From a virus (taxonomy: Duplodnaviria > Caudoviricetes), in the IMG/VR virus record IMGVR_UViG_3300028886_000028, positions 32,001 to 96,000 of that record: a stretch of 64,000 nt of DNA. One strand, given 5' to 3'. Under the pieces are notes generated by a model that had not been told where the DNA came from, did no database searches, and saw only the letters and a list, made by a program, of their open reading frames with translations. Each line of letters starts with the position of its first letter. Within the stretch, counting starts at the first letter, position 1. A program made the position numbers and the translations under genes. Shown here piece after piece: positions 31,224 to 57,025 of the stretch.

Positions 31224-31247
31224 TAAATAAAAAATATATTATAGAGC

Positions 31248-34200
31248 ATGGAAAATATATACGATAGATTGCAATTTATAAGGCATGAAGAAGTCTTCCC
31301 TACCAGAGAAGATGCTTACAACTATGTTATTAATTATCAGATTATGGGTAATTATCCCACAATAGAAGACCCAACAAAAAATATGCCAACACTTTTTGGT
31401 GAACCTATGGTTCTTTTATATGAAAGTGGAGATAATACTAAAGGCCCAAATGTTATTTTAGCAATTGGTTCTGTAGGAAATGGCATACCAGACAATAAGA
31501 ACAGAACATTCTTTATTGATACCCATAAAACTGAAGAAGAGATAGATGCCCTTAATATAAGAATTGACGAAATAAAGTCTCTTATAGGAATTGGTATAAA
31601 TCCTATTGATAGTGATACTATAGATATGAGTGCAGAATTTCATACTAGTGGTACTACTATTAGTGGCGATGTTAAAATTGCTGATTATAGAATCGTTGAC
31701 GGCAAAGCCAATTATAACATAATCCAAAAAGAAGGCAACAAAGGAATTTATGCTTTTGTTGATATGGATTATGACCCAGAAACTCTTGCTATTAAGTTAA
31801 ATGTTAATGGCGTAACAAAAGAAATTCAATTGCCTGCTGACCAACACGTAGTTAGAGGATGGTATGACCCAAGGGAAGAATCTATTATCTTTAAATTGGC
31901 AGATGATTCACAGGTTAAAGTACTTGTAAGTAAATTAATTGAAGAATGGACTGTATTGCCTGATGGACAGACAATCAATGGATATGATATATCCGGCCAA
32001 ACTGTTAACTTTACCCCTGTTGTATTTACTAAGACACATGTTGGTTCTAAAGCAACAGAACACGAAGGAATATATGAATGGCAAGATGTTCTTGAAGCAG
32101 ACATTAGACTTGCTGACCATATTACTGATAATATTTTGCATAAAGATAGAACTGGTAGATACCTTTATGTAAAAGGAACTGCTGACAATATCAAATACAA
32201 AGATGGCCTTACGGTTAAAGATGCGTTAGATAATACAAGTGCAAATATTTCATCAAGCGCAGGTAATTTAATTTACAGACGCCCAGATGGTATATATGCC
32301 ACTGCAATGATTGGCTACAATTCAGCAGAAAACAAACTTATCTACACATATTCTGATAGTGAAACAGGTAGAATTAAAGAACAGGAGATTAAACTTAATG
32401 GAGTTAAATTACTTGAAGATATTACATATGACCCAATTAAAGAAGCAATTGTTATTAGATATGTAGATTCTCAAGGAGAATATCAAAGAGTCGAAATACC
32501 TGTTTCAGATATTATAGAAGAATGGGATATTGAAAATGAAGGCCATAACATAATTTTAGATAAGTTCCGCAGCGAAGGTAAAGGAAAGGACATTCTTACA
32601 GCAGACGCTAGAATACATGTTGGCGATAATAATATCCTTCAAGACGTTAACCATGAATTATATGTTAAAGGCATTTCAGAAAATATTAAATATGACGTTA
32701 CAGGAGATACAACAGTAAAGGACGTTCTTGATGGCCTTTCTTTATCTGCTGAAACACTTAACGCTAAAATAAACCAAGAAGCCGAAAGAGCCAAAGATGC
32801 TGAAATTGAAATAAACAACAAAATAGGCAATGGCTTTGATATTAGGAACACTGTAAGGGACGAAATAGATGCTTTAAAGGGTAAGATTGATAACGTTAGT
32901 GCTAACACTGCTTTAAAATTAAGCGATGTCATTAACGAAGATAACTCAATAAATGTTGAAACAAGAAATGATGAGTTTGATAATCCTACAGTTAAGGTAA
33001 TTAAAACCAATTTAAGCAGCGAGGTTGAAGATGGTAAGGCAAACATCATCAAGTTAAATGCTGATGGTATATATGCTGGCGTTGACCTTATTTACGAGTT
33101 TAATGAAGAAATAGGAACTAATCAACTTATTTTCAAAACAACAAACGGTACTAAAACATATGACCTTAAAACCAATTCTGTAGTAGATAAAATTTATTAT
33201 GATTCTAACAGAGAAGCAATTATAATAGAATACACTGTAAATGGCCATAGAATGCCTGATGTTGTTATTCCTGTTGGAGATTTAATAAATGAATGGAGAG
33301 TTTGGGATGGGCATGAAGGCGCAGTACAACTTGAAAAAACAAGAATTCCAAGCGGAACATCAGAACAAGATATATTAAAGGCTTCTGTTGTAATTTCAGA
33401 CCATGATGATAATATAGTCATTAATGATAATGGGGCACTTTATGTATCTAACAGTGGTATTACAAGCAACAAGAATGAAATTGATTCGTTAAAAGAAAGA
33501 CTTTCAACTGATGAAGAAAACATTGGCATAATAGAAACTGCAATTTCAAATGAAATCACCAGAGCAATATCTGCTGAAACGGTATTGCAAACTAACGATA
33601 ATAGAATCGAACATTTATTAGAAGATGAAATTAATCGTTCTACCAACAAAGATAATGAGTTGCAAAATCAATTAAGCAACATTGAATCAGCGCTTGAAAA
33701 TGAAATTAATCGTTCTGAAAATGTTGACAATCAGTTAAGGTCAGATTTAAATACTGAAATTACACGAGCAACAACTCAAGAATCATATCTTCTCCATTTG
33801 ATTAGTGATGAGGTTGAAAATAGAATTAGTGGTGATTCGATTAATTCAAATGCAATAGTTAGTGAAGAAACTCGCGCTAGGGAAGCAGAAACGAGATTGG
33901 AGGCAACTATTAATAGTGAAATTTCAAGAGCTCAAAACGCAGAGGGAGATTTAAGGGAAGCAATCACTGCTGAAACGTTAAGGGCGCAAGAAGCCGATAA
34001 CGAACTTTATCAGAGGATTTCAGATGAGGTTGTTGAAAGGTCTAATGGCGATGCATCATTAAGTGCTGCAATTATAACAGAGATAAGTAGAGCAACTGGA
34101 GCAGAAAACACTATTTCTCAAACATTAAATACAGAAGTTGAACGCTCTACGCAAGAGGATGCAAGGCTTAATAGTCTAATTACAGCAGAAACGGCATCAA

Positions 34201-35852
34201 GGGAAGCAGCAGATAACGAATTAGAAGAGGAAATTAGGAAACTAGTATTGACATTTGATGATACTAATTCAATTGATTTCACAAAGACAACAGGCAATGT
34301 TGTAACTGCTGACGTTAAGCTACAAAGTGGAAATAATATCATAAAAGTTGGAGAAGGCCTTTATGCGACAGTTTCTCTTTCTTATGATGGGGCGAGAAAC
34401 ACTATTAAATTGATAACTTCTAATGGAGAGCAAGAAGCAATTCAATTGAATACTGTTGGAAGCTTAATTGATGGGATGGAATATAATGCTGACGAGAGAG
34501 CACTTGTTATTAAATATCATGATGCAGCAGGAAATCCATTACAAATTTCATTCCCTGTAAATCAGTTATTTAACGATTGGGAGGTTGATAACCCATCTGA
34601 AAAGAGTGCTGTTGAATTGACCAAAACTTCTCCTTCTGAGCCAGATGACCCAGATAAATTAAAGGCTCGCATCCTTATTACAGATGACCATGACGGCGAC
34701 GGAAAGCCAGACCAAGGTAGTAATAACTTAATAGAAATAAGGAATAATGGACTTTATGTTGATGGTTCTTTTATAGATTCATATACAGGAGATAGCGAAT
34801 GCTTGAAACGAGAAGTTAAAGCAGTAGAGAGGGCTATATTTGGCAATCAACAGATAAATGAATGTGGCGATGGATTTGTATATGTTGCGCCAGATGGTAC
34901 TTATTATATAAACAGTGCAAATACAGTTAATAATGCTACATACATTTTAGACCTATCAATAAAAAGATTGTCTTCATATACTGAAGATATAGATAATAGA
35001 CTTATTATTGTGTCAGGCAAAACTGATTGCAACGCTGAAGAACTAAAAGTTGTAGAAAACGATTTCCTTGGAATGCCACTTTTACACGCTTGTGGAGAAG
35101 GTGATTCATATAGGCCAAATCAAGGAACGTTCTACATATTTAGCGGAACGTCATTTAACGACACTGATATTATATTAGATAGAGAAATAAAACGCACAAA
35201 TGATGATGTTGATATTTTAAATCAAAAAGTAAATATAATATCTGGCGATGTTGAGTGTCTTGAATCTACAGTTGATGCGATGAATGCAATAACATTCGGT
35301 TCAGCTTATACTATGCCTGTTTGCGGAGAAGATGCCGCATATCCAGTATATGATGGGTGCGTAATTAGTGCCGCTACGTCATTCTATGAAGCAGACAAAC
35401 TTTTAGACCAAGCTGTATGTGAATTGATGGGTAAAAGCACTGTAGCAGGCTCTGATACCCCTTCTAATCACACATCAATTGAAAAGATAGACGATTTAGA
35501 CCATATTAATGTTGATACTAGACTTTCTCATGGTAGCCTAAATGGTATGTCTGATGATGATTTAGTTATTACTGATGCAAGTGGCGCTTATATAGACCCA
35601 ACTAGAACAGAATTCACAGATACTAATGCATTAAGAATAATAAGCATTAGTGGAGAATCTGCCGATAGTCCATATAATGGTATTTATTTGAGTAATATTT
35701 GGGATTGCGGTTTATATTATGACGAAACTGAAGATGCTGATGCAATAGAAGCAGCTAATGAGGCAGGATATAATACAAATTACAGAACTGATAATGCACC
35801 AAGCGCAAGTAATATAAACTATATGAATAACGTCAGACAGAACGATATTTAA
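31248..35852 (+). CDS. Large fibre/structural protein (1534 aa)
   Basis: Four repeats of YD...EAIxIxY..IPVxDxIxEW..L.ADxxI..NI...GLYV, a central ExxRA coiled coil, and WDCGLY near the end. Confidence 0.6.
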   Translation: MENIYDRLQFIRHEEVFPTREDAYNYVINYQIMGNYPTIEDPTKNMPTLFGEPMVLLYESGDNTKGPNVILAIGSVGNGIPDNKNRTFFIDTHKTEEEIDALNIRIDEIKSLIGIGINPIDSDTIDMSAEFHTSGTTISGDVKIADYRIVDGKANYNIIQKEGNKGIYAFVDMDYDPETLAIKLNVNGVTKEIQLPADQHVVRGWYDPREESIIFKLADDSQVKVLVSKLIEEWTVLPDGQTINGYDISGQTVNFTPVVFTKTHVGSKATEHEGIYEWQDVLEADIRLADHITDNILHKDRTGRYLYVKGTADNIKYKDGLTVKDALDNTSANISSSAGNLIYRRPDGIYATAMIGYNSAENKLIYTYSDSETGRIKEQEIKLNGVKLLEDITYDPIKEAIVIRYVDSQGEYQRVEIPVSDIIEEWDIENEGHNIILDKFRSEGKGKDILTADARIHVGDNNILQDVNHELYVKGISENIKYDVTGDTTVKDVLDGLSLSAETLNAKINQEAERAKDAEIEINNKIGNGFDIRNTVRDEIDALKGKIDNVSANTALKLSDVINEDNSINVETRNDEFDNPTVKVIKTNLSSEVEDGKANIIKLNADGIYAGVDLIYEFNEEIGTNQLIFKTTNGTKTYDLKTNSVVDKIYYDSNREAIIIEYTVNGHRMPDVVIPVGDLINEWRVWDGHEGAVQLEKTRIPSGTSEQDILKASVVISDHDDNIVINDNGALYVSNSGITSNKNEIDSLKERLSTDEENIGIIETAISNEITRAISAETVLQTNDNRIEHLLEDEINRSTNKDNELQNQLSNIESALENEINRSENVDNQLRSDLNTEITRATTQESYLLHLISDEVENRISGDSINSNAIVSEETRAREAETRLEATINSEISRAQNAEGDLREAITAETLRAQEADNELYQRISDEVVERSNGDASLSAAIITEISRATGAENTISQTLNTEVERSTQEDARLNSLITAETASREAADNELEEEIRKLVLTFDDTNSIDFTKTTGNVVTADVKLQSGNNIIKVGEGLYATVSLSYDGARNTIKLITSNGEQEAIQLNTVGSLIDGMEYNADERALVIKYHDAAGNPLQISFPVNQLFNDWEVDNPSEKSAVELTKTSPSEPDDPDKLKARILITDDHDGDGKPDQGSNNLIEIRNNGLYVDGSFIDSYTGDSECLKREVKAVERAIFGNQQINECGDGFVYVAPDGTYYINSANTVNNATYILDLSIKRLSSYTEDIDNRLIIVSGKTDCNAEELKVVENDFLGMPLLHACGEGDSYRPNQGTFYIFSGTSFNDTDIILDREIKRTNDDVDILNQKVNIISGDVECLESTVDAMNAITFGSAYTMPVCGEDAAYPVYDGCVISAATSFYEADKLLDQAVCELMGKSTVAGSDTPSNHTSIEKIDDLDHINVDTRLSHGSLNGMSDDDLVITDASGAYIDPTRTEFTDTNALRIISISGESADSPYNGIYLSNIWDCGLYYDETEDADAIEAANEAGYNTNYRTDNAPSASNINYMNNVRQNDI

Positions 35853-42782: not shown

Positions 42783-42885
42783 TTTATTAATTATATTTTA
42801 TACTTTGTATAAAATATAAGATTTTTTTAAAAACAATCAAGTTTATTTGTTTTAAGTACTATTTATTGTAAATAAAGTGTTTTTT

Positions 42886-43575
42886 ATGAAAATTTTATTG
42901 TCAGAATCTCAATTTAAAAAGATATGCGAGGCAATGATGCCAGGGTTTAGACTTGATTATTTAACATCTGCTCAATCATTTAGTGAAAGGAACAAATATT
43001 GTTTGAAAATGTTGGGTGAACCTGTAGGAAAAGGTTCAAGTAGAATTGTCTACCAAATAGACGATGAGACTTGCCTTAAATTGGCATGGAATGAAAAAGG
43101 TATTGAACAAAATTTGGAAGAAATTTCTATAGCAAGTGATGGGTTTATATCTTATATACCTAAAATATATAATGGTAGTGATGAAGAAAATGGTTTGTGG
43201 ATTATAACACAATACGTTTTACCAGCAAAAGCGTCAGATTTTAAAGAAATACTTGGAATACCTTTCAGAGACGTAGCTAAATTTGCAAAAAATACAGATG
43301 ATAGATTTAAATATAAATCAGGGCAATTTTATATGAACATTGCTGATAATATTGTGCGTAAATTATACCAAAAGTATGAAGATAATTATGATGTAATATC
43401 TTTATTCAATGATATTAGCGATTTAAAAGCAAATTATAATCAACTTGTTATTGATTTGGCAGCAATACGAAATTGGGGTATGGTAAGAGAAAATGGAAAC
43501 ACATACATGGTAATGTTAGATACTGGTTTTAGCGAAGAAGTTTATAACCAATATTATAAAAGTAATTTTAGATAA
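42886..43575 (+). CDS. Protein kinase-like protein
   Basis: GKGSSRIVY (Gly loop), LKLA (Lys), QNLEE (helix C), DLAAIRNWG (catalytic loop), LDTGF (DFG-like). Confidence 0.7.
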   Translation: MKILLSESQFKKICEAMMPGFRLDYLTSAQSFSERNKYCLKMLGEPVGKGSSRIVYQIDDETCLKLAWNEKGIEQNLEEISIASDGFISYIPKIYNGSDEENGLWIITQYVLPAKASDFKEILGIPFRDVAKFAKNTDDRFKYKSGQFYMNIADNIVRKLYQKYEDNYDVISLFNDISDLKANYNQLVIDLAAIRNWGMVRENGNTYMVMLDTGFSEEVYNQYYKSNFR

Positions 43576-43576
43576 T

Positions 43577-44119
43577 ATGGCAAATTTACAATTTAACGCA
43601 AAAAATATAAAACGTGTTCCAATAAATAGAAATAATATTTTCTATTCTGAAGAATCATTTGCTTTTGAGGGTGCTATCGGAAAAAACTATATTGAACAAG
43701 ATATGAATCAAACTGCTGTTTTATATCAAGTTGACGCTAGCGCAACTAATATACATGATGTCTATGGAGAAACGCAGTCAGATAATGTTCAATTTAAAAC
43801 CCCAGTAGAATTCCATTGCGTTTATAAAATTGAACAGCCAGAATTGAAAGCATATGATAAAACGAAAAACATTGGCACTTATATGAAAACCGGTAAGCTG
43901 ACCATTGGCGTTTATGAAGAAACTTTAAAAGAACTTGGGATAGATATTAAAAAAGGAGATTATATTGGAATACAAATAACCCCTGAACATATGGAGTTCT
44001 TTAGTGTGACAAATGATGGAAAAAATAACTATGATAATGCTCATACATTGTTCGGTGTTAAACCTTTATATAGAACAGTGCAGTGTTATCCGGTTGATTC
44101 AAGCGAATTCCAAGCATAG
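43577..44119 (+). CDS. Neck / head-closure protein (T4 gp14-like)
   Basis: LYQVD..DVYGE..F..PVE..LKELGIDIKKGDYI..FFSV pattern; virion gene context. Confidence 0.55.
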   Translation: MANLQFNAKNIKRVPINRNNIFYSEESFAFEGAIGKNYIEQDMNQTAVLYQVDASATNIHDVYGETQSDNVQFKTPVEFHCVYKIEQPELKAYDKTKNIGTYMKTGKLTIGVYEETLKELGIDIKKGDYIGIQITPEHMEFFSVTNDGKNNYDNAHTLFGVKPLYRTVQCYPVDSSEFQA

Positions 44120-44120
44120 T

Positions 44121-45179
44121 ATGAAAGTTATATTAACAGAGGAACAGTTTATAAAATTAACAGAGTCTGCCGAAAATTTGGACTCTCCGTTATATCATTA
44201 CACATATTTATCTTTTTTGATAGGTATGTTAGAAACCGGCACGTTTGAAACGTCTTACGACGATTTTGATTATTATAGAGCAGATAGACAAAATGGAGTT
44301 CTGCGGTGTGGTGGCGAAGATACAAGAGATTATATATCATTTACAAGGGATAAAATGTATAATGTTAACATGGATAAGGGTTTGTATAGTATTCCTTCTT
44401 TTAGAGGTTCTTACGAAAAAACGGATTACATAGGCCCACAAGTTAGAATACAATTTAATCCTAATTTTGTAAAAAATGTTAGAAATGGTAGATTACAACC
44501 TTATTTTTTTGACAGTTATCCAGACCAAAAGGAAGAAAAACTATATTTTGAGAAAGACACAAAATCAATACCATTAGATACAAAATATATTGAAAAGATA
44601 GATATTCTTCTTCAAGTTTTAAGAAAAGACGATATTCCTTTCATTAAAAAATTATTTGATTTCCCTGAAATCGTTGGTAAAACACGAATTTATTATGTTA
44701 AATACGCTGTCAGCCAATGGTCTATAGATAGAAGCAATGGCAAAGCGATAAAAGACGATAATTATAAATTGTATATTGAATTTTTAAAAGGCAATGAAAA
44801 GTTTTCAACTCCATTAATTTCATTAAAAAATGTTTTACACTATTTTTCTGATGATGAATTAAACAATTATAAAGAACCTTCTTATATGGAAAAATATTAT
44901 AATGGAAATGTAAAAGATGAAAATGAACAATGGGAATTAAATAATAAAAGGAAAAAATATACTGACAAAATTATTTCATTATATAATCAGGCCACTGATG
45001 AGCAGAAAAAAGAAATAAGAAACATATATAGAAAGTATAAAGATAAATTAGCAATGCCGTTATCGTATAAAATTCATGACCAGACCACAGGCTATAAAGG
45101 TGATTTTAGTGATGATGTAGGGTATTTGGAAAAGTTTTACGATGATGTTAACGAAATTTTTGAACGTTTTGAATTATGA
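44121..45179 (+). CDS. Putative ART-fold protein with an MKVILTEEQF leader
   Basis: LYHYT..ISFTRD..VRI.F..EEKL (H-S-E-like arrangement). Confidence 0.4.
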   Translation: MKVILTEEQFIKLTESAENLDSPLYHYTYLSFLIGMLETGTFETSYDDFDYYRADRQNGVLRCGGEDTRDYISFTRDKMYNVNMDKGLYSIPSFRGSYEKTDYIGPQVRIQFNPNFVKNVRNGRLQPYFFDSYPDQKEEKLYFEKDTKSIPLDTKYIEKIDILLQVLRKDDIPFIKKLFDFPEIVGKTRIYYVKYAVSQWSIDRSNGKAIKDDNYKLYIEFLKGNEKFSTPLISLKNVLHYFSDDELNNYKEPSYMEKYYNGNVKDENEQWELNNKRKKYTDKIISLYNQATDEQKKEIRNIYRKYKDKLAMPLSYKIHDQTTGYKGDFSDDVGYLEKFYDDVNEIFERFEL

Positions 45180-45202
45180 AAAATATTTATAAAAAAAATT
45201 AT

Positions 45203-45967
45203 ATGAAAAAGATAATTAGGTTAACAGAAGGTGATTTACATAAAATTATAAAGGAATCCGTTAAAAAAATAATAAAAGAGGCATCTATATATCCAGGATA
45301 TAATAGCACATCAACACAAGGCATGACACCTATTAATAATAAAAACTATGAGTATGACCCATCAACGTTTACTGGGGTTGACAAAACAATGGGTTATGCA
45401 CAAAAATTCAAGTATAATGGTGATGACCCAGAATGGTTTAGAGAGACACTAAGAATATCAGATGGAGATGATTTCAATCCAGATTGGATGGAAAGCGCCG
45501 GCGTAGATTTTGAAGGGGATACAGCTTTCGATGTTGATTCTTTGTATAATAGTATAACGGAAAAACTCATTAGCGCAGGAGTAAAAGATGTTACTGAAGC
45601 ACATAAAAATGTTTATCAAAACGCATATGGTGGCGGAAACTACGATGATGAAGAATATTATGTTGTAAATCCTGAATTTGTAAAACATTTTTTAAGTGCA
45701 AGTGGAGAACAGCGTTTACATAAACAAGGATATGTGTATAATTGGTTTATTGAATTGGGTGATAGAACATTTTGTTCAAGACATAATTTTGATGATGAAG
45801 ACATTGCACAAGAAAATTGCGATAAATATATAAAATTAATAAACAAGTTAGGCGGAAGTTGTGAAGCGTGGGTAGATGGAATATCTTTAGAAAACGGAAA
45901 ATATATAATGGATACATGTTTAGCCTATGAAAATTTTGGCGGCGGAGAGCCTTTTTGGATGGATTAA
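45203..45967 (+). CDS. Hypothetical protein with an MKKIIRLTEGDLHKIIKESV leader
   Basis: Start follows ATATTTAT at 45183. Confidence 0.7.
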   Translation: MKKIIRLTEGDLHKIIKESVKKIIKEASIYPGYNSTSTQGMTPINNKNYEYDPSTFTGVDKTMGYAQKFKYNGDDPEWFRETLRISDGDDFNPDWMESAGVDFEGDTAFDVDSLYNSITEKLISAGVKDVTEAHKNVYQNAYGGGNYDDEEYYVVNPEFVKHFLSASGEQRLHKQGYVYNWFIELGDRTFCSRHNFDDEDIAQENCDKYIKLINKLGGSCEAWVDGISLENGKYIMDTCLAYENFGGGEPFWMD

Positions 45968-45984
45968 TTAAAAAAATATTAATT

Positions 45985-47082
45985 ATGATTAACGAAGCAG
46001 ATATAACAAGAAGGTTTAGAAACCTTGTTTCAACAGCACAACTTGTAAAAAAGATTGCTCAACATGGGTATTTCAGTTTTAAAAATATTGTAAACGAAGC
46101 CGTTGATGAAGATTATGGCCAATATAAAATGCCAACTATTAATGATATAGAAGGAGAAACAATGACAACTATATATCGAGTGGCTTTTAAATATCAATTG
46201 GACAGTATTTTTGAATTCGGATATAATAGAGCATTTACTGGTTCAAAAGGTGGCAATATGTATGGAGCAGGAGTTTATTGCACTTATAAGTTAGAAGATA
46301 GCATACATAATGTAAAAACAAAATCAGAATACGGCGATTGTATCGTTAAAATGTTTTTAATAGGCGGCTTTGATGGGTTTATAATATTTGATGAACGTAA
46401 TGCAAGGCGTATGTATGGTAATTTTTGGCGCATTAAAGACCAATTAATTCATAGATATGGAGTTGACAGTTTCGAGGCTGAAAGAATTGAGAGACGTTGT
46501 TCTTCATCAGGAGTAGATTTATACCACGGAAGAACAGCTCCTGCCGCATATACTTTTGCGTCTGATTATAAAAATTTAATAAAAGAAAAGGGGATAAGAG
46601 GCGTCATATATAAAGGTAATAGAGACGGACATTGTGTAGTACCTTATGATTTTAGTGCAGTAATACCTTATTCTGTGTCATTTGACCAAGGTAAAACATT
46701 TAAAAAAATGTTTAAGCCGGAAACATACCAAAGAATGCATGATAGTATAGATGTGCAATTTAGATATGGTAATAGATATGCAAAGGTTTTTGAAAGTGTA
46801 AAAGGTTTTACGATGGTTCAAAAAAGAGACGGTAAATATAATTTCATTGATAATAGTGATGATAAAGAACTATCTCCAATATGGTTCGATGAAATATTAA
46901 GCAAAATAAACCCTAATAATGGAACTTTTGGCTTTAGATGGGGAGGGCATGATTTTATTGGCTCTATAATGTCGCCACAAGGCTCATCAGAAAAGGGGTG
47001 CATAATGGATGATGGACAACCTTATTGCGATTTTTCTGATTTACCAGAACTTGTTCAAGCGATAGAAAATGGAGAAGAGTAA
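45985..47082 (+). CDS. ADP-ribosyltransferase-like (PARP-type signature) protein with a C-terminal WG-like repeat
   Basis: IYRV..SIFEFGY..GNMYGAGVYCT..YGDCIVK; GFTMV..GKYNFID..WFD. Confidence 0.5.
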   Translation: MINEADITRRFRNLVSTAQLVKKIAQHGYFSFKNIVNEAVDEDYGQYKMPTINDIEGETMTTIYRVAFKYQLDSIFEFGYNRAFTGSKGGNMYGAGVYCTYKLEDSIHNVKTKSEYGDCIVKMFLIGGFDGFIIFDERNARRMYGNFWRIKDQLIHRYGVDSFEAERIERRCSSSGVDLYHGRTAPAAYTFASDYKNLIKEKGIRGVIYKGNRDGHCVVPYDFSAVIPYSVSFDQGKTFKKMFKPETYQRMHDSIDVQFRYGNRYAKVFESVKGFTMVQKRDGKYNFIDNSDDKELSPIWFDEILSKINPNNGTFGFRWGGHDFIGSIMSPQGSSEKGCIMDDGQPYCDFSDLPELVQAIENGEE

Positions 47083-47086
47083 AAAT

Positions 47087-47113
47087 AAAAAGAGTGGTTT
47101 TTCCACTCTTTTT
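47087..47113. terminator. Bidirectional terminator
   Basis: aaaaagagtgg-tttt-ccactcttttt. Confidence 0.8.
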
Positions 47114-47163
47114 AAATTGTATATAGCTATTTTGTTTAATAGTTAACATGTATATGGTTCACT

Positions 47164-48690
47164 TTATTTTACCATTCTATTGAACAAATCAACAAAATCA
47201 TTTTTAATTTTTCTTTGTTCTTCAATTTGTTCTTCAGGTAAGCCATATTTTTTAATTGCCATGTTAATAATATCATCTATCGTAAATTCTTTTTTATTTT
47301 CCATTACTTCAAGTATTTTTGATTCTGAAATTTTCTTTGCCATTGTTGGTATTATTGAGTTTGTTATTGTAAATATTGACATTACATCATTATCGTTATA
47401 CGTAATATTACCACCTATACCTGTTAAAATTTTATGATTTGCTTCATTAATTCCTGAACTTATAGCGACTATCAATGTTGATACTAACGCAATTCGTTCT
47501 ATATCTTGAGGTTTTACATAACCAAGAGATTTTGCCATTACTTTAGAATATTGATAAGTTCCATCTACAATAAATTTTTCATCAGATACATTTTTTAAAG
47601 TTGGTATGTTTTTCTTTCCGCATAACCATTCTATTATTCCTTTCCTTTTTTTCATTGCGGTGCTTGAACTTGCTGATGGCTGAGTCTGTTGCTGCGTTTG
47701 AACACTTCCAATTTGGGCTTTTAATTCATCTTCTTTAGTTTGAGCAACTGAATTAATTTCACCGGTTAAATTGTTTATTAACCCCATGTCATTTGTGAAA
47801 ACATCATCTTTCGGGTCTGATGGCGGTATTGTATCTGCTACGTCATACATTATAACTTTATAAAATCCACCATTTCCTTTGTTAGCATCCATTTCAATGC
47901 TTCCAATTGTTTGTACTGAATTTTTAGTAAAATCTTTAGCATCTTTCATATCTTGGAAGCCATGTGCTCTAGCAGAATTATTCCTTGCCGCCCAAGATGT
48001 ATTTCCATAATTTGATGATTTAACAACTATGATTTTTTGCGCCCCAGGTTTAATTTGCCTGTTAAACTTTAAACGCCAAGTTTCTGGTGTTGTTACAAAA
48101 CTAGCCATAGGGTTTTGAGATAAGATGCTCATAACGTTTTTCTTACTAAGTACATGCCCATATTTTTTAGCGCATGCGACTGTAGTTTGGAAATTAAGAA
48201 GCGTTTTTCTAAAGTTAGGGTCTTGTAACTTTGTAAGCATTTCTTTCCAGTTTGAGGCTATGTTAGCATTACTATTTGCAATGTCTGCTTCTGTTGGGCA
48301 TTGTGCTATTTTATCCATCAATGAATCGCCAAATGAATCAGCTGACGTGTCGTTATATGTTCCTAAACTTTTTATGCAATTAGTTATTTTGTCAATAAAT
48401 GTTGTGCCTAATTCGTTGATTTTATCAATGTTTATTTTTAAAATAATACCTTTATCATATTTAGGATGCGCAACAGCAACCATTATATTATTAGGAATAT
48501 TCGCAGCCCATGAATTAATTAATTGTTGTCTGTCTGTTGGGTTAATTCCATCAACATATGCTTCAAGATATTCTTTTTCTTTACCTGTAACTTTACTTCT
48601 CGCTTTTTTAGCTTCGCAATGACTAATTCTTATAAAAGATTTAGATGAAGTATTATTATTAAATTTGTTAAATTTTTTTGGTAGTGCCAT
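47164..48690 (-). CDS. ArdC-N-like ssDNA-binding domain protein
   Basis: LSKKNVMSILSQNPMASFV...W..KFNRQIKPGA..I..MYDVADT resembles the ArdC/DUF1738 N-terminal pattern. Confidence 0.55.
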   Translation of the reverse strand: MALPKKFNKFNNNTSSKSFIRISHCEAKKARSKVTGKEKEYLEAYVDGINPTDRQQLINSWAANIPNNIMVAVAHPKYDKGIILKINIDKINELGTTFIDKITNCIKSLGTYNDTSADSFGDSLMDKIAQCPTEADIANSNANIASNWKEMLTKLQDPNFRKTLLNFQTTVACAKKYGHVLSKKNVMSILSQNPMASFVTTPETWRLKFNRQIKPGAQKIIVVKSSNYGNTSWAARNNSARAHGFQDMKDAKDFTKNSVQTIGSIEMDANKGNGGFYKVIMYDVADTIPPSDPKDDVFTNDMGLINNLTGEINSVAQTKEDELKAQIGSVQTQQQTQPSASSSTAMKKRKGIIEWLCGKKNIPTLKNVSDEKFIVDGTYQYSKVMAKSLGYVKPQDIERIALVSTLIVAISSGINEANHKILTGIGGNITYNDNDVMSIFTITNSIIPTMAKKISESKILEVMENKKEFTIDDIINMAIKKYGLPEEQIEEQRKIKNDFVDLFNRMVK

Positions 48691-48713
48691 AGTGCATTTT
48701 GTATTTTAATTAA

Positions 48714-48729
48714 TTATAAATATTTATAA
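48714..48729. promoter_or_regulatory. 16-bp palindromic late-promoter candidate serving divergent genes
   Basis: TTATAAATATTTATAA between 48690(-) and 48765(+). Confidence 0.55.
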
Positions 48730-48764
48730 ATAAAAAAAACTTTGATAATTTAAGTAATGTAATT

Positions 48765-49961
48765 ATGGTACAATATAATGATTTAACGCAGCAAGAATCT
48801 ATTAAAAATATCAGTAATTTATTGAATGAAGCTGATGTATCAAGAAGGTTTAGGAATTTAATATGCACATCAACACTTGTTAAATACATCGCTAAGTGTG
48901 GGTATGAAGGAAAATATACAGAAGAAGCGTTATATAAAACGTTAGAAAAGTGTGGTATTAAACCTAAAACTTATCGTGGAGGTAAACCATATTTCAATAG
49001 GAAAAATGCATGTAATTGCGTTGAAAAACACATATTTGATATAAGAGATATGGCGGAAAAAATGGAACAGTATAATCAACCAAAAGACGAAACTGAATGG
49101 AATGTTGGTTATGGCAGGGGCGATATGAGTGTTGCCTCTAGAGAAATGTTGGCTAACGATGGTGTGTTTGGTTCTGATGAAAATGAGTTGTATAAAACAA
49201 ACGAAAGCAAAAAAATTATCAGAATATCTGAAGATAAACTAAAATTGTTTACAATAAATGTTAAGCAATTAGAAGAAGCCTATGATTGGAATGCATGGGG
49301 TTCATTAGAAGGCGGCATCGGTAAAAGACCGTATCGTAAAACAGCAACAGCAGAAATGCCAAAGAGAAAGCCAGTAAAAAGTTTTTACGACGCAAAAACA
49401 GTTAGCCAAATAGGTAAAACATTAAGAAAGGCATGGGATTCTTTAAAATTGAGGGCAATAATAGGCTATAATAGAAATGTTACTCGTATATACGGACGTG
49501 GTAACGCTGATGCTATTTACAATTTTTTTAATGATAATGGAGAAAATATGTTTGCCAAATTTGCAGAAAAATATAACACAATTTCAAAATTAACAAGCGA
49601 TATTGAAAAGTGGGCAAAGGAAGGCGATAGAAACGGGGTAGATTATAGATTACGTGATTTGCCTAAAAATTTAGAAGAACTTGCTATTATGTTAAATGGG
49701 CTTTTTAACAAATATAAAGAATTGAAAAGAGTTCGCCAATTCAGCCCAACTTTAAATGGTAATGCAAATATGGTCGGAAATATGATAGATGGATATAAAA
49801 CAACTAATGGATTATCTGATTTAGTAATTGCAAAAAGTCCGGCAGAATTATCAAAAATAACAAGCCAACTTAATACTTGTGCCGAATACATTAGAAATAT
49901 GTGGGGAGATAACCTTGAAGGTGGAACAGTTAGGGATGGCTCAGATAGAATTGTACGTTAA
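48765..49961 (+). CDS. Two-domain hypothetical protein with an internal KKIIRISE linker
   Basis: N-terminal NEADVSRRFRNL..GY segment shared with the 45985 gene. Confidence 0.65.
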   Translation: MVQYNDLTQQESIKNISNLLNEADVSRRFRNLICTSTLVKYIAKCGYEGKYTEEALYKTLEKCGIKPKTYRGGKPYFNRKNACNCVEKHIFDIRDMAEKMEQYNQPKDETEWNVGYGRGDMSVASREMLANDGVFGSDENELYKTNESKKIIRISEDKLKLFTINVKQLEEAYDWNAWGSLEGGIGKRPYRKTATAEMPKRKPVKSFYDAKTVSQIGKTLRKAWDSLKLRAIIGYNRNVTRIYGRGNADAIYNFFNDNGENMFAKFAEKYNTISKLTSDIEKWAKEGDRNGVDYRLRDLPKNLEELAIMLNGLFNKYKELKRVRQFSPTLNGNANMVGNMIDGYKTTNGLSDLVIAKSPAELSKITSQLNTCAEYIRNMWGDNLEGGTVRDGSDRIVR

Positions 49962-49973
49962 TAGTAAAAAACA

Positions 49974-51329
49974 ATGTTAATTCAACCTAAACCATATATG
50001 GATAGATTACGACTCAGAAATCACGCTGTTGGAACTGAGCGTAGAAGAAATATGTCCAAAATTGTTTTGGAAAATCAAACATTTTTTCCAAAACCAGTAG
50101 AGTATGTAGATATAGATAAGGCTTTTTTTGATTGGGTTGACAAAAAATTAGATGTTGTTTACAACGGCAAAAAATTACCAACATACAAATTATTTAGTAA
50201 CCAAAAATTAAGCGAATATTCTCAAACTTGGGAAAATCTTGATGAAACAGGTAATATAATAATGAACTTTAAAACAATAACACGAGAAAATAACCCTCAG
50301 CATGGAGAAAGTCAGGGTGGCAATTATAATGTTCCCGGTAATCGTGATTATCCAATGTTTTATGTTCCAATACTGCAAGAAAATGGGGAAGAAGCTTATG
50401 ACCTTTATTCAATGAAACAGCCTTTGTCGGTCAATTTTATGTATACTGTATCAGTTATATGTAACAAATATGAAATTTTAAATAAGTTTAATGAATTAAT
50501 GCATTATGAATTCAGTGCATTAGAATGCTATATTTACCCTAATGAACACCCAATGCCTATGGTTATTGAAAACATAACAGACGAGTCAGAGTATAGCATA
50601 GATGATAGGAAATATTATTCTCAATCGTATCAAATTAAACTTATGGCTTACATAATAAGGAAAGAAGACTTTAAAGTTAGTAAAGTTCCTTCTAGGTTTA
50701 TTGTTAAAATAAATGATGTTAAGTCTAAAAAGAAATACAAGAAAAAAACTTTAAATGATTGCTGGCTTGGTAATTTAAACAATTTACCACTTGAAAACGA
50801 TGATAAAAAAGGTATAGAAAATGAATTACCAAAATTAGAACGTTCGTCAGCATTTGAAAAATGCGAAAAACCTATTGATTTAGCACCACCTCATAGAACC
50901 CCATCAGTCATAGTAGAAGAAGAAGTGCCTGAATGCTGTTTTAAACATGAAGACCCATATATTCACAAAAAGATAAAACTTATTGCAGATTTTCCTTATT
51001 GCGAAGAACATACAGTTACATTTACAGCAGACACAATCATAGATATTGATGAAATAGAAACAAATAATGTTCACGATTTCATTATAAAGATTAATGGAAA
51101 AGTTGAGACTTTTGAAGATGAAGTAAAGATAAATGTAGGCGATGAAATTTTTATTAATATAAGTAGAGAAGATGAATATGGAGATTCTTCATTAACAATT
51201 GTAGGAAGCGACCCGGAAACTGTTATTGATACAAGAATAGATTATGAATCAGAATTGGACACTCCAGTATCAGAAGAAGATATATACATAAATAAAGGCA
51301 ATAATATAGCAGTTGACACGAATAAATGA
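49974..51329 (+). CDS. Putative tail terminator/completion protein (gp15-like) with a C-terminal extension
   Basis: DIDxAFFDWV..P..VNFMYTVSV..YQIKLMAYI pattern; virion gene context. Confidence 0.45.
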   Translation: MLIQPKPYMDRLRLRNHAVGTERRRNMSKIVLENQTFFPKPVEYVDIDKAFFDWVDKKLDVVYNGKKLPTYKLFSNQKLSEYSQTWENLDETGNIIMNFKTITRENNPQHGESQGGNYNVPGNRDYPMFYVPILQENGEEAYDLYSMKQPLSVNFMYTVSVICNKYEILNKFNELMHYEFSALECYIYPNEHPMPMVIENITDESEYSIDDRKYYSQSYQIKLMAYIIRKEDFKVSKVPSRFIVKINDVKSKKKYKKKTLNDCWLGNLNNLPLENDDKKGIENELPKLERSSAFEKCEKPIDLAPPHRTPSVIVEEEVPECCFKHEDPYIHKKIKLIADFPYCEEHTVTFTADTIIDIDEIETNNVHDFIIKINGKVETFEDEVKINVGDEIFINISREDEYGDSSLTIVGSDPETVIDTRIDYESELDTPVSEEDIYINKGNNIAVDTNK

Positions 51330-53392: not shown

Positions 53393-56300
53393 ATGGCAGA
53401 TAATGCAAGAGGAGTTCATGTCTCACCTGGAGTTTATTCACGTGAAATCGACCTAACATATGCTGTGAAGAGTCTTGGTATTACAACACTCGGTGTTGCT
53501 GGCGAAACAATGCGTGGCCCAGCATTCCAACCAATGCATATTGAAAACTGGCGCCAATTTACTGAAGTTTTCGGTGGAACAAGTACAGAAAAATTTAAAG
53601 GAAGCCAATATCCTAAATATGAGTTACCTTATATTGCAAAGTCATATCTTACTGAATCTAAACAATTGGAAGTTGTTCGCGTTCTTGGACTTAGCGGATA
53701 TAAGGCTGGACCCGCATGGGTTGTAACAGCTAATAGGCCAAACGCTAATGGTGAAACGGTTAAAAAAGATATGGTTGTTGCAGTTCTCCGTTCAAGAGGA
53801 CATTATGAAAAATACCATAAGTTTGATGTAAATAAAGATTCATGCGAATGCCCTTCAAGTGCATATGATAAATTAATATATGAAGTTGGAGAAATAAAAA
53901 GAGAAAGCGGAACGTGCAATGTTTATGGCTATAACGATATTGTCAAACTTAAAGCCTATAAACCTTTGTATGCAGCAGGAAATGAATGTACAGGCTATGA
54001 AATAGACGGCATGGCCAGTGATTTCAAAGTAAGTTCAACAAATTATGGAAGATTTACAATTTATGGATTGAAAGGATTCCAATCTACTGGTACTACAGAA
54101 ATTTCTAGCGGCAATTCTGATTATTTTGAGTATTCTGTTTCTTTAAATCCTCATGATAAAGATTTTATTTTGAAAGTTTTAGGAACAGACCCTCAAGATG
54201 GCGATGCACCATTATATGTTGAATCATTGTATGATGTTGCACTTGCTCATGGTATTATGGATGGAATTACTGAACCAACTTATATTGACGGTATTAATCA
54301 AAAACTTACATTCTATAATGTATACGACCCATCTGATTATTGTGGTTTAGAGCCTATAAATGGTTTACTTAGGCTACAAGAATCTTCTTTACAGAGAAAA
54401 AATGTTGGTCAGAGATTTGTTGCAGATTGCAGCACAGTTAGCAACGAGGATTATAAAGGTGATGTGTACATTTATGCTCACCCATATGATTATGAGACAG
54501 GATTACCATTTACATTTGATAATTTGTTTAAAACAACCGCAACTGCAACAGAAAATAAAGATAGTTCTGGCTCTATAACATCATATACTGTTACAGTAAA
54601 TGGTAATTTAGATACAGAATTTGTTAGTAAAAATTTTGGCGATGCTTCCGGCTCTGTATGTTGCATTTATGATGATGAAATCAAAAAAATAGATGAAATT
54701 AATTTTACCGGTACCGGAACATGCGCAACAGCAGAAGAAAGCGGCACTACAGTTGAAGCAATAATCGCTGACCATTTTACACCTGAAGGGTTAATATTAT
54801 CAATAATAAATAAAGACCTTATTGGACAAGTATTTACAGTAGCAAGATATGTCGATAATCAAGGAAAAGTTCATTATTTCTACAAATACTATCCTGAAGC
54901 AAATGTAAAAAAATGGGGAGAAGACCATAAAAATGTTGACCTAGTTCCTATAGTTGATAAGTTGCAATCAGGTAGCGAATCTATTACAAACAAAGATTAT
55001 AATGATAAGGGAGAATCCACAAGACTTGTTATAGTTAAAAATTTAGCCGATAACTTGTACTATAAATTAGTGGAAGATGAAAATATTGAGAAATCTGATT
55101 GTGGCGGAAAAGATGTAAGGTTTGTAAATTGCGACCTTAACAACTATGCTTCTCCGTATAGATACGCTTCTACTCCTTGGATTGTTTCTAACCTTAAGGG
55201 AGATTACAATCATATAGAACTGAATAAGTTGTTCAGATTCCATACTATTTCTGATGGTACTAATTCTAACTACGAAATCAAGATTTCTATAGAAAATATT
55301 AGGCCTGATGAGGGTGTATTCGATGTAGTTGTAAGAGATATAAATGATAGTGATGAATTCATTATGCCACTTGAGAAATTCTCAAAATGTACATTAACCC
55401 CTGGCGATAGGAATTATATTGGTTATAAGATTGGTACATTTGATGGAATTTATGAAACAAAATCTAAATTCATTACAGTAGAGATTGCTGAAGGAACTGC
55501 TGTTGAACATTCTGCACCTGCTGGTTTCTTAGGATACCCAATGGCTCATTATGATGGTTTGGAAATTGTTTCTCCTAGCGAAGAAAATGAGAAAAAAGTT
55601 GATGGCCCAACTATCAAGTACAACTTGTACTACGATAATGATGTTAAGAACAGAAAACAGTATTTTGGCTTATCTACAAGAGTTGGTGTTGACGTAGACA
55701 CATTCACATATAAAGGAAAAGCCGCATATATTGATTTACCAGAGATGTTAACGCAAGGCTTCCACCTTGACTCAAGACTTGACAAGTCTAATTATAAAGG
55801 AGGGCATTTGCCATATATTACTGTCGATGGAGAAAGTGGCTATACATTCGATGCAGTATCTGTAAACAACAGAACATCAGTTCTTACTGACATTCCAGCC
55901 ATTGGAACTGAAGAACTTATGAACGGTTCAATTTATGAATACGTAAATCTTCGTAAGTTCACAGTTTATTTCTATGGAGGATTTGACGGATGGGACATTT
56001 ATAGGAATCAGAGAAGTAATACTGATGACTTTAAGATGTCTAAATATCTTGGAGTGTATGACAATAACAGTGGAGAAGGATATTCATTCAATAGAATTGA
56101 TGACCCTGATGGACTTGGTTTAAATCAAAATGGTATTACATCTGACTGGTATGCTTATCTTGCAGCATATAGACAGTTTGCTAACCCTGAAGCTGTAGAT
56201 ATTAACGTATTTGCTTCTCCTGGTATTGATTATGTTAATAACAAAACTCTTGTTAATGAAGTAATTGATATGCTTGAAGAGGAACGTGCAGACTCAATCT

Positions 56301-57025
56301 ATGTTGTTACAACTCCAGATAAACCAAGTGGTGCAGCAGATTTCGTAGACGAAATGTATACGCCTGACGATGCTGTTTATAACCTTGAGGATACTGAAAT
56401 TGATTCAAATTATACTTGTACATATTATCCTTGGGTTAAATATCTTGACCAAGATAATAACCAGTATATTTACTTGCCTGCGACAAAAGACGTTGTACGT
56501 AATTTCGCACAGACAGATAATCAAACATTCCCTTGGTTTGCACCAGCAGGTCTTGAACGTGGTGATGTTAATTGCGTAAGAGCACACTTCATTACAAAAT
56601 TAGCTGACGAAGATGTACTTTATGAAGGAAGAATTAACCCAATTAAGACATTCGCAACAGATGGAGTTAAAGTTTGGGGACAGAAAAACTTACAAGTACG
56701 TGAGTCACAACTTAACAGAATTGCAGTTCGTAGACTACTTCTTAGAATGAGAAAACTTATTGCAATCGCTTGCAGAAGTTTGATATTCGAGCCAAACGAC
56801 CCAGTAACAAAGAACATGTTCTTGAGCGCAGTTTCTCCAATTATGGACAATATTAGAGCGAATAGAGGTATTTCAGATTATAAGATTGAAGTAAATGATA
56901 CGCCTGAATCTCGTGACAGACGCGAATTACCGGCTAAGATATATTTCAAACCTTATAACGCATTAGAGTACGTTGTTCTTGACTTTATACTCACGCCAGA
57001 AGGTGTTTCATTTGATAATATTTAA
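53393..57025 (+). CDS. Tail sheath protein
   Basis: SPGVYSREID, GPAF.P, YYPW, PWFAPAGLERG, INPI, VWGQK, RIAVRRLL, FEPND. Confidence 0.95.
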   Translation: MADNARGVHVSPGVYSREIDLTYAVKSLGITTLGVAGETMRGPAFQPMHIENWRQFTEVFGGTSTEKFKGSQYPKYELPYIAKSYLTESKQLEVVRVLGLSGYKAGPAWVVTANRPNANGETVKKDMVVAVLRSRGHYEKYHKFDVNKDSCECPSSAYDKLIYEVGEIKRESGTCNVYGYNDIVKLKAYKPLYAAGNECTGYEIDGMASDFKVSSTNYGRFTIYGLKGFQSTGTTEISSGNSDYFEYSVSLNPHDKDFILKVLGTDPQDGDAPLYVESLYDVALAHGIMDGITEPTYIDGINQKLTFYNVYDPSDYCGLEPINGLLRLQESSLQRKNVGQRFVADCSTVSNEDYKGDVYIYAHPYDYETGLPFTFDNLFKTTATATENKDSSGSITSYTVTVNGNLDTEFVSKNFGDASGSVCCIYDDEIKKIDEINFTGTGTCATAEESGTTVEAIIADHFTPEGLILSIINKDLIGQVFTVARYVDNQGKVHYFYKYYPEANVKKWGEDHKNVDLVPIVDKLQSGSESITNKDYNDKGESTRLVIVKNLADNLYYKLVEDENIEKSDCGGKDVRFVNCDLNNYASPYRYASTPWIVSNLKGDYNHIELNKLFRFHTISDGTNSNYEIKISIENIRPDEGVFDVVVRDINDSDEFIMPLEKFSKCTLTPGDRNYIGYKIGTFDGIYETKSKFITVEIAEGTAVEHSAPAGFLGYPMAHYDGLEIVSPSEENEKKVDGPTIKYNLYYDNDVKNRKQYFGLSTRVGVDVDTFTYKGKAAYIDLPEMLTQGFHLDSRLDKSNYKGGHLPYITVDGESGYTFDAVSVNNRTSVLTDIPAIGTEELMNGSIYEYVNLRKFTVYFYGGFDGWDIYRNQRSNTDDFKMSKYLGVYDNNSGEGYSFNRIDDPDGLGLNQNGITSDWYAYLAAYRQFANPEAVDINVFASPGIDYVNNKTLVNEVIDMLEEERADSIYVVTTPDKPSGAADFVDEMYTPDDAVYNLEDTEIDSNYTCTYYPWVKYLDQDNNQYIYLPATKDVVRNFAQTDNQTFPWFAPAGLERGDVNCVRAHFITKLADEDVLYEGRINPIKTFATDGVKVWGQKNLQVRESQLNRIAVRRLLLRMRKLIAIACRSLIFEPNDPVTKNMFLSAVSPIMDNIRANRGISDYKIEVNDTPESRDRRELPAKIYFKPYNALEYVVLDFILTPEGVSFDNI

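Follow-up and report, generated by a model that had tools for sequence, protein, structure and literature searches.

The window analysed here, a 64,000-nt stretch of DNA, comprises bases 32001–96000 of a single virus contig of 401,138 bp with a G+C content of 31% (IMG/VR record IMGVR_UViG_3300028886_000028), and its gene content includes a contractile sheath (53393–57025), a DNA polymerase, and an SNF2 helicase. Unless the genome is mentioned, coordinates refer to the window, and genes are named by their lower coordinate. The region 42886–48690 holds six open reading frames (ORFs), five on the plus strand and one (47164–48690) on the minus strand. The main finding is that this region combines a backbone gene for a protein kinase-like protein lacking the C-lobe with an apparent accessory island that encodes a protein with a predicted ADP-ribosyltransferase (ART) fold, a further ART candidate, and a weakly ArdC-like protein, that its promoters belong to the class preceding structural genes, and that leader-like segments recur in three of the protein families. 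We tentatively propose, with slightly less than even confidence, that the island and the kinase together form an effector kit that would be loaded into the capsid, undergo trimming by the prohead protease, and reach the host together with the DNA, where packaging, cleavage, injection, the substrates, and catalysis by the ART proteins are all putative.

The first gene, 42886–43575 (+), encodes a minimal protein kinase-like protein of 229 aa. Residues G50-S-S-R53, K65, E79, D190, N196, and D212 are strictly or almost strictly conserved in 33 homologues (29–90% identity), and among them are the Gly-rich loop, the VAIK-type Lys, and the alphaC Glu of the protein kinase-like superfamily, as well as the catalytic-loop Asp...Asn and the DFG-type Asp (D190 and D212 are invariant, N196 is nearly invariant). 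Since the chain stops 17 residues past D212, the usual C-lobe is missing. The family profile matches the Salmonella effector kinase SteC (PDB:8JBI) with E 0.003 over the region of the Gly-loop and Lys, the single sequence matches STE20 kinases with E 0.2–1.5 and phrog_4301 (function unknown) with E 6e-16, and no curated kinase family in Pfam or NCBIfam is matched. The kinase assignment made in the initial annotation is thus well supported by the invariant catalytic residues and the SteC profile match, for a protein in which the C-lobe is absent. To judge from its sequence, the protein is a member of a C-lobe-less kinase group that is known computationally and is experimentally untouched; such kinases have been described as parts of polyvalent proteins and, in Bacteroidetes phages, also on their own (Iyer et al., 2017; PMC5512222). 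A kinase paralogue (genome 22753–23589, +; locus L092; 28% identity, E 8e-20), located 9.2 kb ahead of the window, starts with MKIVLHENQL and adjoins head-assembly genes and the prohead protease.

With the kinase alignment as a query, 435 relatives were retrieved from IMG/VR, and 79 loci were examined. The order SNF2(−) / kinase, 43577-like, 49974-like, (ATPase), sheath is observed in 23 loci; in L003 and L004, the homologues of 43577 and 49974 adjoin and the island is absent, and in L002 and L005 just one short gene with the NEAD module described below lies between them. Because relatives keep the arrangement kinase–43577–49974–sheath without genes 44121–48765, comparison of gene order identifies these genes as an accessory island at an insertion hotspot within a conserved late block of this T4-like megaphage, and the kinase as a part of the backbone. 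The flanking genes 43577–44119 (+; 180 aa) and 49974–51329 (+) also belong to the conserved backbone, the latter standing directly after the 43577 homologue in island-free relatives. The last island gene, 48765–49961 (+; 398 aa), encodes a protein with a complete NEAD..RRFRNL module at its head, followed by an internal leader-like segment, KKIIRISEDKLKLF; this module of 29 aa is common to 48765 (48819–48905) and 45985 (45985–46075), with ~75% DNA identity.

All ORFs named in the initial annotation are present, and their tight arrangement was borne out: five plus-strand genes form an operon (42886–47082) with gaps of 1–24 nt between the genes. The earlier list, however, overlooked 45203–45967, which lies inside the same range. 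Comparison of the island proteins with Pfam, PHROG, NCBIfam, and PADLOC yielded phrog_4301, for the kinase, as the sole match, and blastn and tblastn against 50,697 phage records matched nothing.

Promoter motifs were derived by k-mer enrichment over 227 upstream gaps of the whole genome. TATTTAT was found in 74 upstream regions, with a peak 20–50 nt ahead of the start codon, and TAnnTTTG, which we take to be the Bacteroidota housekeeping −7 type, that is, a host-type motif, in 81; both motif classes occur together in 12 regions compared to ~26 expected (hypergeometric P = 1e-5), and hence are nearly exclusive. In the region studied, TATTTAT stands at −26 of 42886, in the divergent promoter region (42783–42885, +) that separates the SNF2 helicase gene (−) from the kinase operon (+), at −42/−32 of 47164, and at −44 of 48765, the last two genes sharing a 74-nt divergent promoter region (48691–48764) with palindromic TATAAATATTTATAAATA. 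The same motif is found ahead of the prohead protease gene and head genes adjacent to it, as well as the sheath, tube, and leader genes. As TATTTAT precedes structural and leader genes as well as the genes considered here, their description as driven by late-type promoters holds in the sense of a motif class common to structural genes. The T4 late consensus TATAAATA was also considered as a late promoter and is unconvincing, with just 41 of its 166 copies upstream of genes; TATTTAT fits better. The plus-strand operon and the convergent gene 47164 have a common bidirectional intrinsic terminator, AAAAAGAGTGGTTTTTCCACTCTTTTT (47083–47115), read from the sequence as a G+C hairpin with a T-run.

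The genome encodes a T4-type prohead protease (genome 25125–25592, −; PF03420 Peptidase_S77, E 5.8e-23, above the cut-off), and a leader that such a protease could trim is found in the overlooked gene. A hidden Markov model (HMM) built from 13 canonical leaders, which were derived in this analysis, has its sole match in the region on 45203–45967 (+; 254 aa), where a canonical 24-residue leader (KIIRLTEGDLHKIIKESVKKIIKE, followed by A; E 7e-14) precedes an uncharacterised payload; paralogues of the leader are scattered genome-wide. The payload of 45203 opens with EASIYPGY, as in the paralogue at genome 386999. The N-termini of 42886 (MKILLSESQFKKICE, followed by A) and 44121 (MKVILTEEQFIKLTES) are leader-like, both in a degenerate manner. 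A second HMM, covering the first 24 residues of the kinase family, matches almost solely ORF N-termini, including that of 44121 (E 0.035) and canonical leaders (E 1–16), and therefore 42886 and 44121 likely carry a looser relative of the first half of the leader; the looser class, MKI(I/L)x(S/T/N)ExQ(F/L), takes in both. The sequence in some kinase homologues is MKIRLTESQY, and where a kinase homologue carries an additional N-domain, the motif is located between the two domains. In the 47164 family, 12 out of 16 leader HMM matches in homologues fall at residues 3–24 (e.g., MKRTIRLTESRLNSIIR in P0166, E 0.001), and in the ART family the matches are at the boundary with a second domain on the C-terminal side (13 cases, e.g., VSLTEEQFRTLVKGVVSSVLYE) or at the N-terminus, in the latter case occupying the same alignment columns as FKNIVNEAVDE of 45985. 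This positional bias argues for the leader being a portable module attached to all three families (kinase, ART, and ArdC-like), although position does not tell its role.

Consequently, the (I/L/V)xE tags described in the initial annotation fared differently. Those at the N-termini of 42886 and 44121 can be retained as members of the degenerate, looser class and not as canonical leaders, and FKNIVNEAVDE aligns with the N-terminal leader-like helices of homologues, being internal in 45985 itself. The C-terminal tag KKISESKILE of 47164 has to be abandoned, as it lies in an unconserved insertion that is missing from most of 64 homologues.

The gene 45985–47082 (+) encodes a protein of 365 aa. Sixty homologues were found, and an AlphaFold2 model based on 25 of them (pLDDT 83.4) consists of a NEAD..RRFRNL remnant (residues 1–29), the helix FKNIVNEAVDE, an ART-fold domain (~42–238), and a beta-rich C-terminal domain (264–343). 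The model has the split beta-sheet core of ARTs. Foldseek yields weak rows naming MbcT, AcrIF11 (6KYF), Tpt1, diphtheria-like toxins, and PARP10/15; ARTs account for ~35 of the 50 best rows, and the remainder match the beta-rich C-terminal domain. Y64-R65 and G89-G-N-x-Y93-G-x-G-x-Y98, which correspond to motifs I and II, are invariant in the family, and D214 and D222 are nearly invariant. On the basis of the model, we are confident that 45985 has an ART fold (PARP/diphtheria/RES-like); binding of NAD+ by this protein is plausible, and catalysis is uncertain. No Pfam PARP/ART match was obtained for 45985, and its single sequence used as a query retrieved no relatives from IMG/VR. An ART paralogue (genome 119041–120075, −; locus L091; 30% identity) has VYHGT on beta-1 and scores 16.9 bits (E 0.0047) against the Pfam PARP family PF00644, under the cut-off of 26.7; its N-terminus is leader-like (INEAYKKILTE), and the next gene downstream opens with the loose tag MKIKINEQKL.

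Compared to P0001, a relative with 89% identity, 45985 has lost in frame ~105 residues of an N-terminal module of ~135 aa, of which the NEAD..RRFRNL segment is left and which 48765 carries in full. Most ART homologues are ~600 aa long (P0007–P0056, alignment A1, columns 600–900). In these, a second conserved domain of unknown function follows a leader-like linker; it is absent from the copy in the window, and its motifs are DNFD, DDVWFVQIIKRHKDN, NSRAYI.PNKRS, FLDIDSDD, and NNGWHILLP. The possibility that 45176–45967 and 45985–47082 represent one frameshifted gene, given that relatives reach 600+ aa, was ruled out, since the extra length of the relatives is accounted for by a C-terminal or N-terminal module dissimilar to 45203.

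The other ART candidate, 44121–45179 (+; 352 aa), is a rare protein with just four homologues in 5.8 billion clusters, and its alignment as a query retrieved no relatives from IMG/VR. Across these five sequences only, H26 (LYHYT), Y71/S73 (YISFTRD), and E138-E139 are invariant, in the order H...Y/S...E(x)E. By ESM Atlas features, 44121 is nearest to the DarT/PARP (0.87) and Arr (0.84) clusters, and its low-confidence ESM Atlas model (pLDDT 0.60) has a DUF2971 neighbour (TM 0.55/0.36); DUF2971 has been proposed to be a DarT-like, DNA-acting ART of the HYE clade (PMC12522546). No match was found in Pfam, NCBIfam, or PADLOC, and hhalign detected no similarity between the 44121 and 45985 families. 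We consider the identification of 44121 as an ART, possibly DarT/DUF2971-like, to be marginally favoured by these features. Thus, of the two ART-like ORFs proposed initially, 45985 stands owing to its fold, and for 44121 there are leads, with no profile method agreeing.

The minus-strand gene 47164–48690 encodes a protein of 508 aa from a broad family (147 clusters at 50% identity) in which N185 and W205 are invariant and R211 is nearly so. Its model (pLDDT 87.4) has three parts: an alpha/beta N-domain (14–130) with generic alpha/beta fold matches, a centre (164–450), and a helical C-terminus. The best structural match of the centre is ArdC, with weak resemblance; a fold search of the model in BFVD was uninformative. 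PF08401 (ArdcN) is absent from 47164 and from the six-frame translated genome at E up to 10, and matches one out of 64 homologues (E 0.0077). The hhalign comparison of 47164, whole and by sub-regions, with R388 ArdC and with a nine-member ArdC alignment gave probability <=1%; there is no HExxH in 47164 and no His among conserved family columns. As both the profiles and hhalign are negative and HExxH is absent, "ArdC-like" here denotes weak structural resemblance in a model rather than membership in the family, and it is only in this sense that the initial ArdC-N-like assignment can be kept. Structure prediction with Foldseek, suggested earlier as a check, gave an ART fold for 45985 and a weak ArdC resemblance for 47164.

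Homologues of 47164 and 45985 are coupled in distant megaphages, in L044 (522–3198) and L059 (2949–6198)/61/63. In these pairs, the genes lie on one strand with the ArdC-like gene first, its stop overlapping the ART start by 8–23 nt, and the proteins are 23–34% identical to those of the window, where the genes are instead convergent. This conserved coupling suggests that the ArdC-like and ART proteins act together.

Taking all this into account, we can outline how the proposed kit would work. The island and the backbone kinase would supply proteins for modification and binding, with transcription from promoters of the structural-gene type (TATTTAT), namely, the C-lobe-less kinase, the PARP/diphtheria/RES-like ART-fold protein, the possible DarT/DUF2971-like ART, and the weakly ArdC-like protein. 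N-terminal leaders, or their degenerate forms, would send the proteins into the prohead core, where the T4-type prohead protease would then trim them after (I/L/V)xE; the proteins would exit the capsid along with the DNA and target host proteins or nucleic acids for modification ahead of phage gene expression. Such a scheme would follow the principle of T4 Alt and the internal proteins, in a "split" version of polyvalent proteins (Iyer et al., 2017). A broader generalization is possible, if somewhat on the unlikely side: in rumen/gut Bacteroidota megaphages, one portable helical leader may serve as an address when N-terminal and as a cleavable linker when located between domains, so that, together with the prohead protease, it would provide an injected "split polyvalent protein" enzyme set (the kinase, ARTs of the PARP/RES-like and DarT-like types, and an ART-coupled DNA binder resembling ArdC), with the cargo swapped at the 43577/49974 hotspot of the neck-to-tail block.

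Delivery in the virion, as stated in the initial annotation, is a reasonable inference and not a result, because the claims on folds, tags, and activities hold unevenly, and a sequence cannot show virion location or injection. A number of observations weigh against it. The late class is defined by a motif obtained by k-mer enrichment, not by measured expression timing; with the canonical-leader HMM, the N-termini of 42886 and 44121 score no better than E 13, and either may be just the helix with which its fold begins; the 47164 protein of the window lacks a leader-like segment at its N-terminus, and the C-terminal tag proposed for it is not conserved; the ART label of 44121 leans on language-model and low-confidence structure neighbours. 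An alternative is that the proteins are late enzymes, made together with the structural proteins, that are not cargo and act in the already infected cell during assembly, packaging, or lysis timing, possibly on phage or host proteins or on DNA, their N-terminal helices being ordinary structural or oligomerization elements; this is suggested by E15-A16 of the kinase family, conserved in the manner of a fold element, along with the statistical unlikeness of the 42886 and 44121 N-termini to the canonical leader and the lack of any leader on 47164. We nevertheless regard this explanation as unlikely, given that three families unrelated to each other show leader-like segments at domain junctions and at N-termini, which a portable module fits better, and that the genes lie within the structural block, with the kinase paralogue beside the prohead protease.

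The ART-fold protein poses a separate problem, as the 45985 family has neither an invariant Glu in the domain nor an invariant Glu/Asp at the expected catalytic position, and, because no catalytic glutamate is identifiable, the enzymatic activity of 45985 is uncertain; the protein may represent either a pseudo-enzyme or an NAD-binding protein of a non-canonical kind. This also detracts from another explanation, in which 47164 and 45985 form a nucleic-acid-directed module, packaged or not, with an ssDNA-binding ArdC-like partner recruiting or regulating an ART-fold protein, whose target would be DNA or RNA (e.g., by DarT-like ADP-ribosylation or NAD+ consumption), and which could protect or mark phage DNA or attack host DNA. 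Such a module would account for the adjacent and overlapping homologue genes of L044 and L059/61/63, for ArdC as the best structural match of the 47164 centre, for the NAD+ or nucleic-acid enzymes (RES/MbcT, ParT, and Tpt1) among the top ART neighbours, and for the DarT/DUF2971 neighbours of 44121, proposed to be DNA-acting ARTs (PMC12522546); yet no sequence profile backs the ArdC-N assignment, and the two genes are convergent and not co-transcribed in this genome, and we find this explanation distinctly unlikely. If, in turn, the ART-fold and ArdC-like proteins were catalytically dead and served as virion internal, scaffold, or decoy proteins, with the kinase alone being an enzyme, one would expect what is seen in an ART core without an invariant acidic residue, with H/C/V at the position tentatively aligned by hand with the PARP glutamate, in the presence of TASOR pseudo-PARP and PARP13 among the structural matches of 45985, and in the absence of HExxH from 47164. 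However, GGN.YG.G.Y, resembling an NAD pocket, and Y64-R65 are strictly invariant in 25 sequences down to 40% identity, which argues for ligand binding, and we assign little probability to wholly inactive proteins. The preferred explanation thus remains a capsid-loaded kit, at the tentative level given above.

In phage T4, the Alt ADP-ribosyltransferase and the internal proteins IPI-III are loaded by an N-terminal capsid targeting sequence that is cut by gp21 after (L/I)xE. Similarly to the T4 cargo, the phage studied here has a T4-type prohead protease, a short common N-terminal leader ending with (I/L/V)xE (in this region, canonical on 45203), an ART-fold candidate cargo, and late-type promoters. 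Unlike that of T4, its leader is longer (~24 aa), is unrelated in sequence, is attached to far more genes, and is also found inside proteins, at domain junctions; the candidate cargo includes a kinase and an ArdC-like protein, and the ART is PARP/RES-like and not Alt-like (R-S-E).

For polyvalent proteins of phages and conjugative elements, delivery with DNA has been proposed, with kinase, ART, and ArdC-N domains as hubs (PMC5512222). The region resembles them in its repertoire of a C-lobe-less Ser/Thr/Tyr-type kinase, ART, and, by weak structural resemblance, ArdC-N, and in the adjoining SWI2/SNF2 ATPase gene; however, the domains here reside on separate ORFs (229–508 aa) or in leader-linked two-domain proteins, not on one giant polypeptide, zincin MPTase and MuF are lacking here, and release would be by the prohead protease rather than by autoproteolysis. 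SPN3US and phiKZ are likewise giant myoviruses, in which many head-internal proteins are matured by a protease and enter the host cell, but the cleavage motif is not the same there, nor are the proteins, among which is a virion RNA polymerase, and no common portable leader has been described for these phages (PMC5694885, PMC7411985).

Individual proteins also have partial counterparts. The kinase is small and C-lobe-poor, as are SteC (PDB:8JBI) and the T7 gp0.7 kinase, and a host-takeover role would be expected, although the overall similarity of 42886 to them is not significant. The ArdC of R388/pSa (PDB:6SNA) combines an ssDNA-binding ArdC-N domain with a zincin metalloprotease, whereas 47164 has an extra alpha/beta N-domain and is longer (508 vs. 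297 aa). LYHYT, Y/S, and EE of 44121 follow in the motif I–III order of DarT/DUF2971 HYE-clade ARTs, but there is no profile match of 44121 to PF11185 or DarT models.

New features of the system are the enzymatic nature of a part of the candidate cargo, the hotspot of insertion, the coupling of ArdC-like and ART genes, and the leader as an interdomain linker. If the proteins are packaged, capsid loading of the T4 type would extend beyond a few internal proteins to host-modifying enzymes, forming a kit that is modular and exchangeable and is delivered ahead of the reading of phage genes, and T4 capsid targeting would be tied to the theme of polyvalent proteins, so far known from comparative genomics only. 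It would also provide experimental handles on three uncharacterised families abundant in gut and rumen viromes (for the kinase, 435 IMG/VR relatives; for the 47164 family, 147 clusters), and draw attention to the conserved ArdC-like/ART gene pair of uncharacterised function.

The gene 43577, initially labelled as a head-closure or neck gene, is well conserved (alignment A4, 60% mean column identity) and in 23 related loci has the kinase upstream, and 49974 and the sheath gene downstream. It has no match in PHROG, Pfam, or PDB, and for 49974 no family match was obtained and its profile finds nothing in PDB; hhalign of the 43577 (A4) and 49974 (A6) profiles against T4 gp13, gp14, and gp15, taken as single-sequence templates, gave probability <1%. 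The label is therefore in keeping with the conserved place upstream of the sheath and has no support from homology. Elsewhere in the window, at 28866–35852 (+), two large ORFs (785 and 1534 aa) have TATTTAT promoters, their sole match being phrog_13589 (function unknown).

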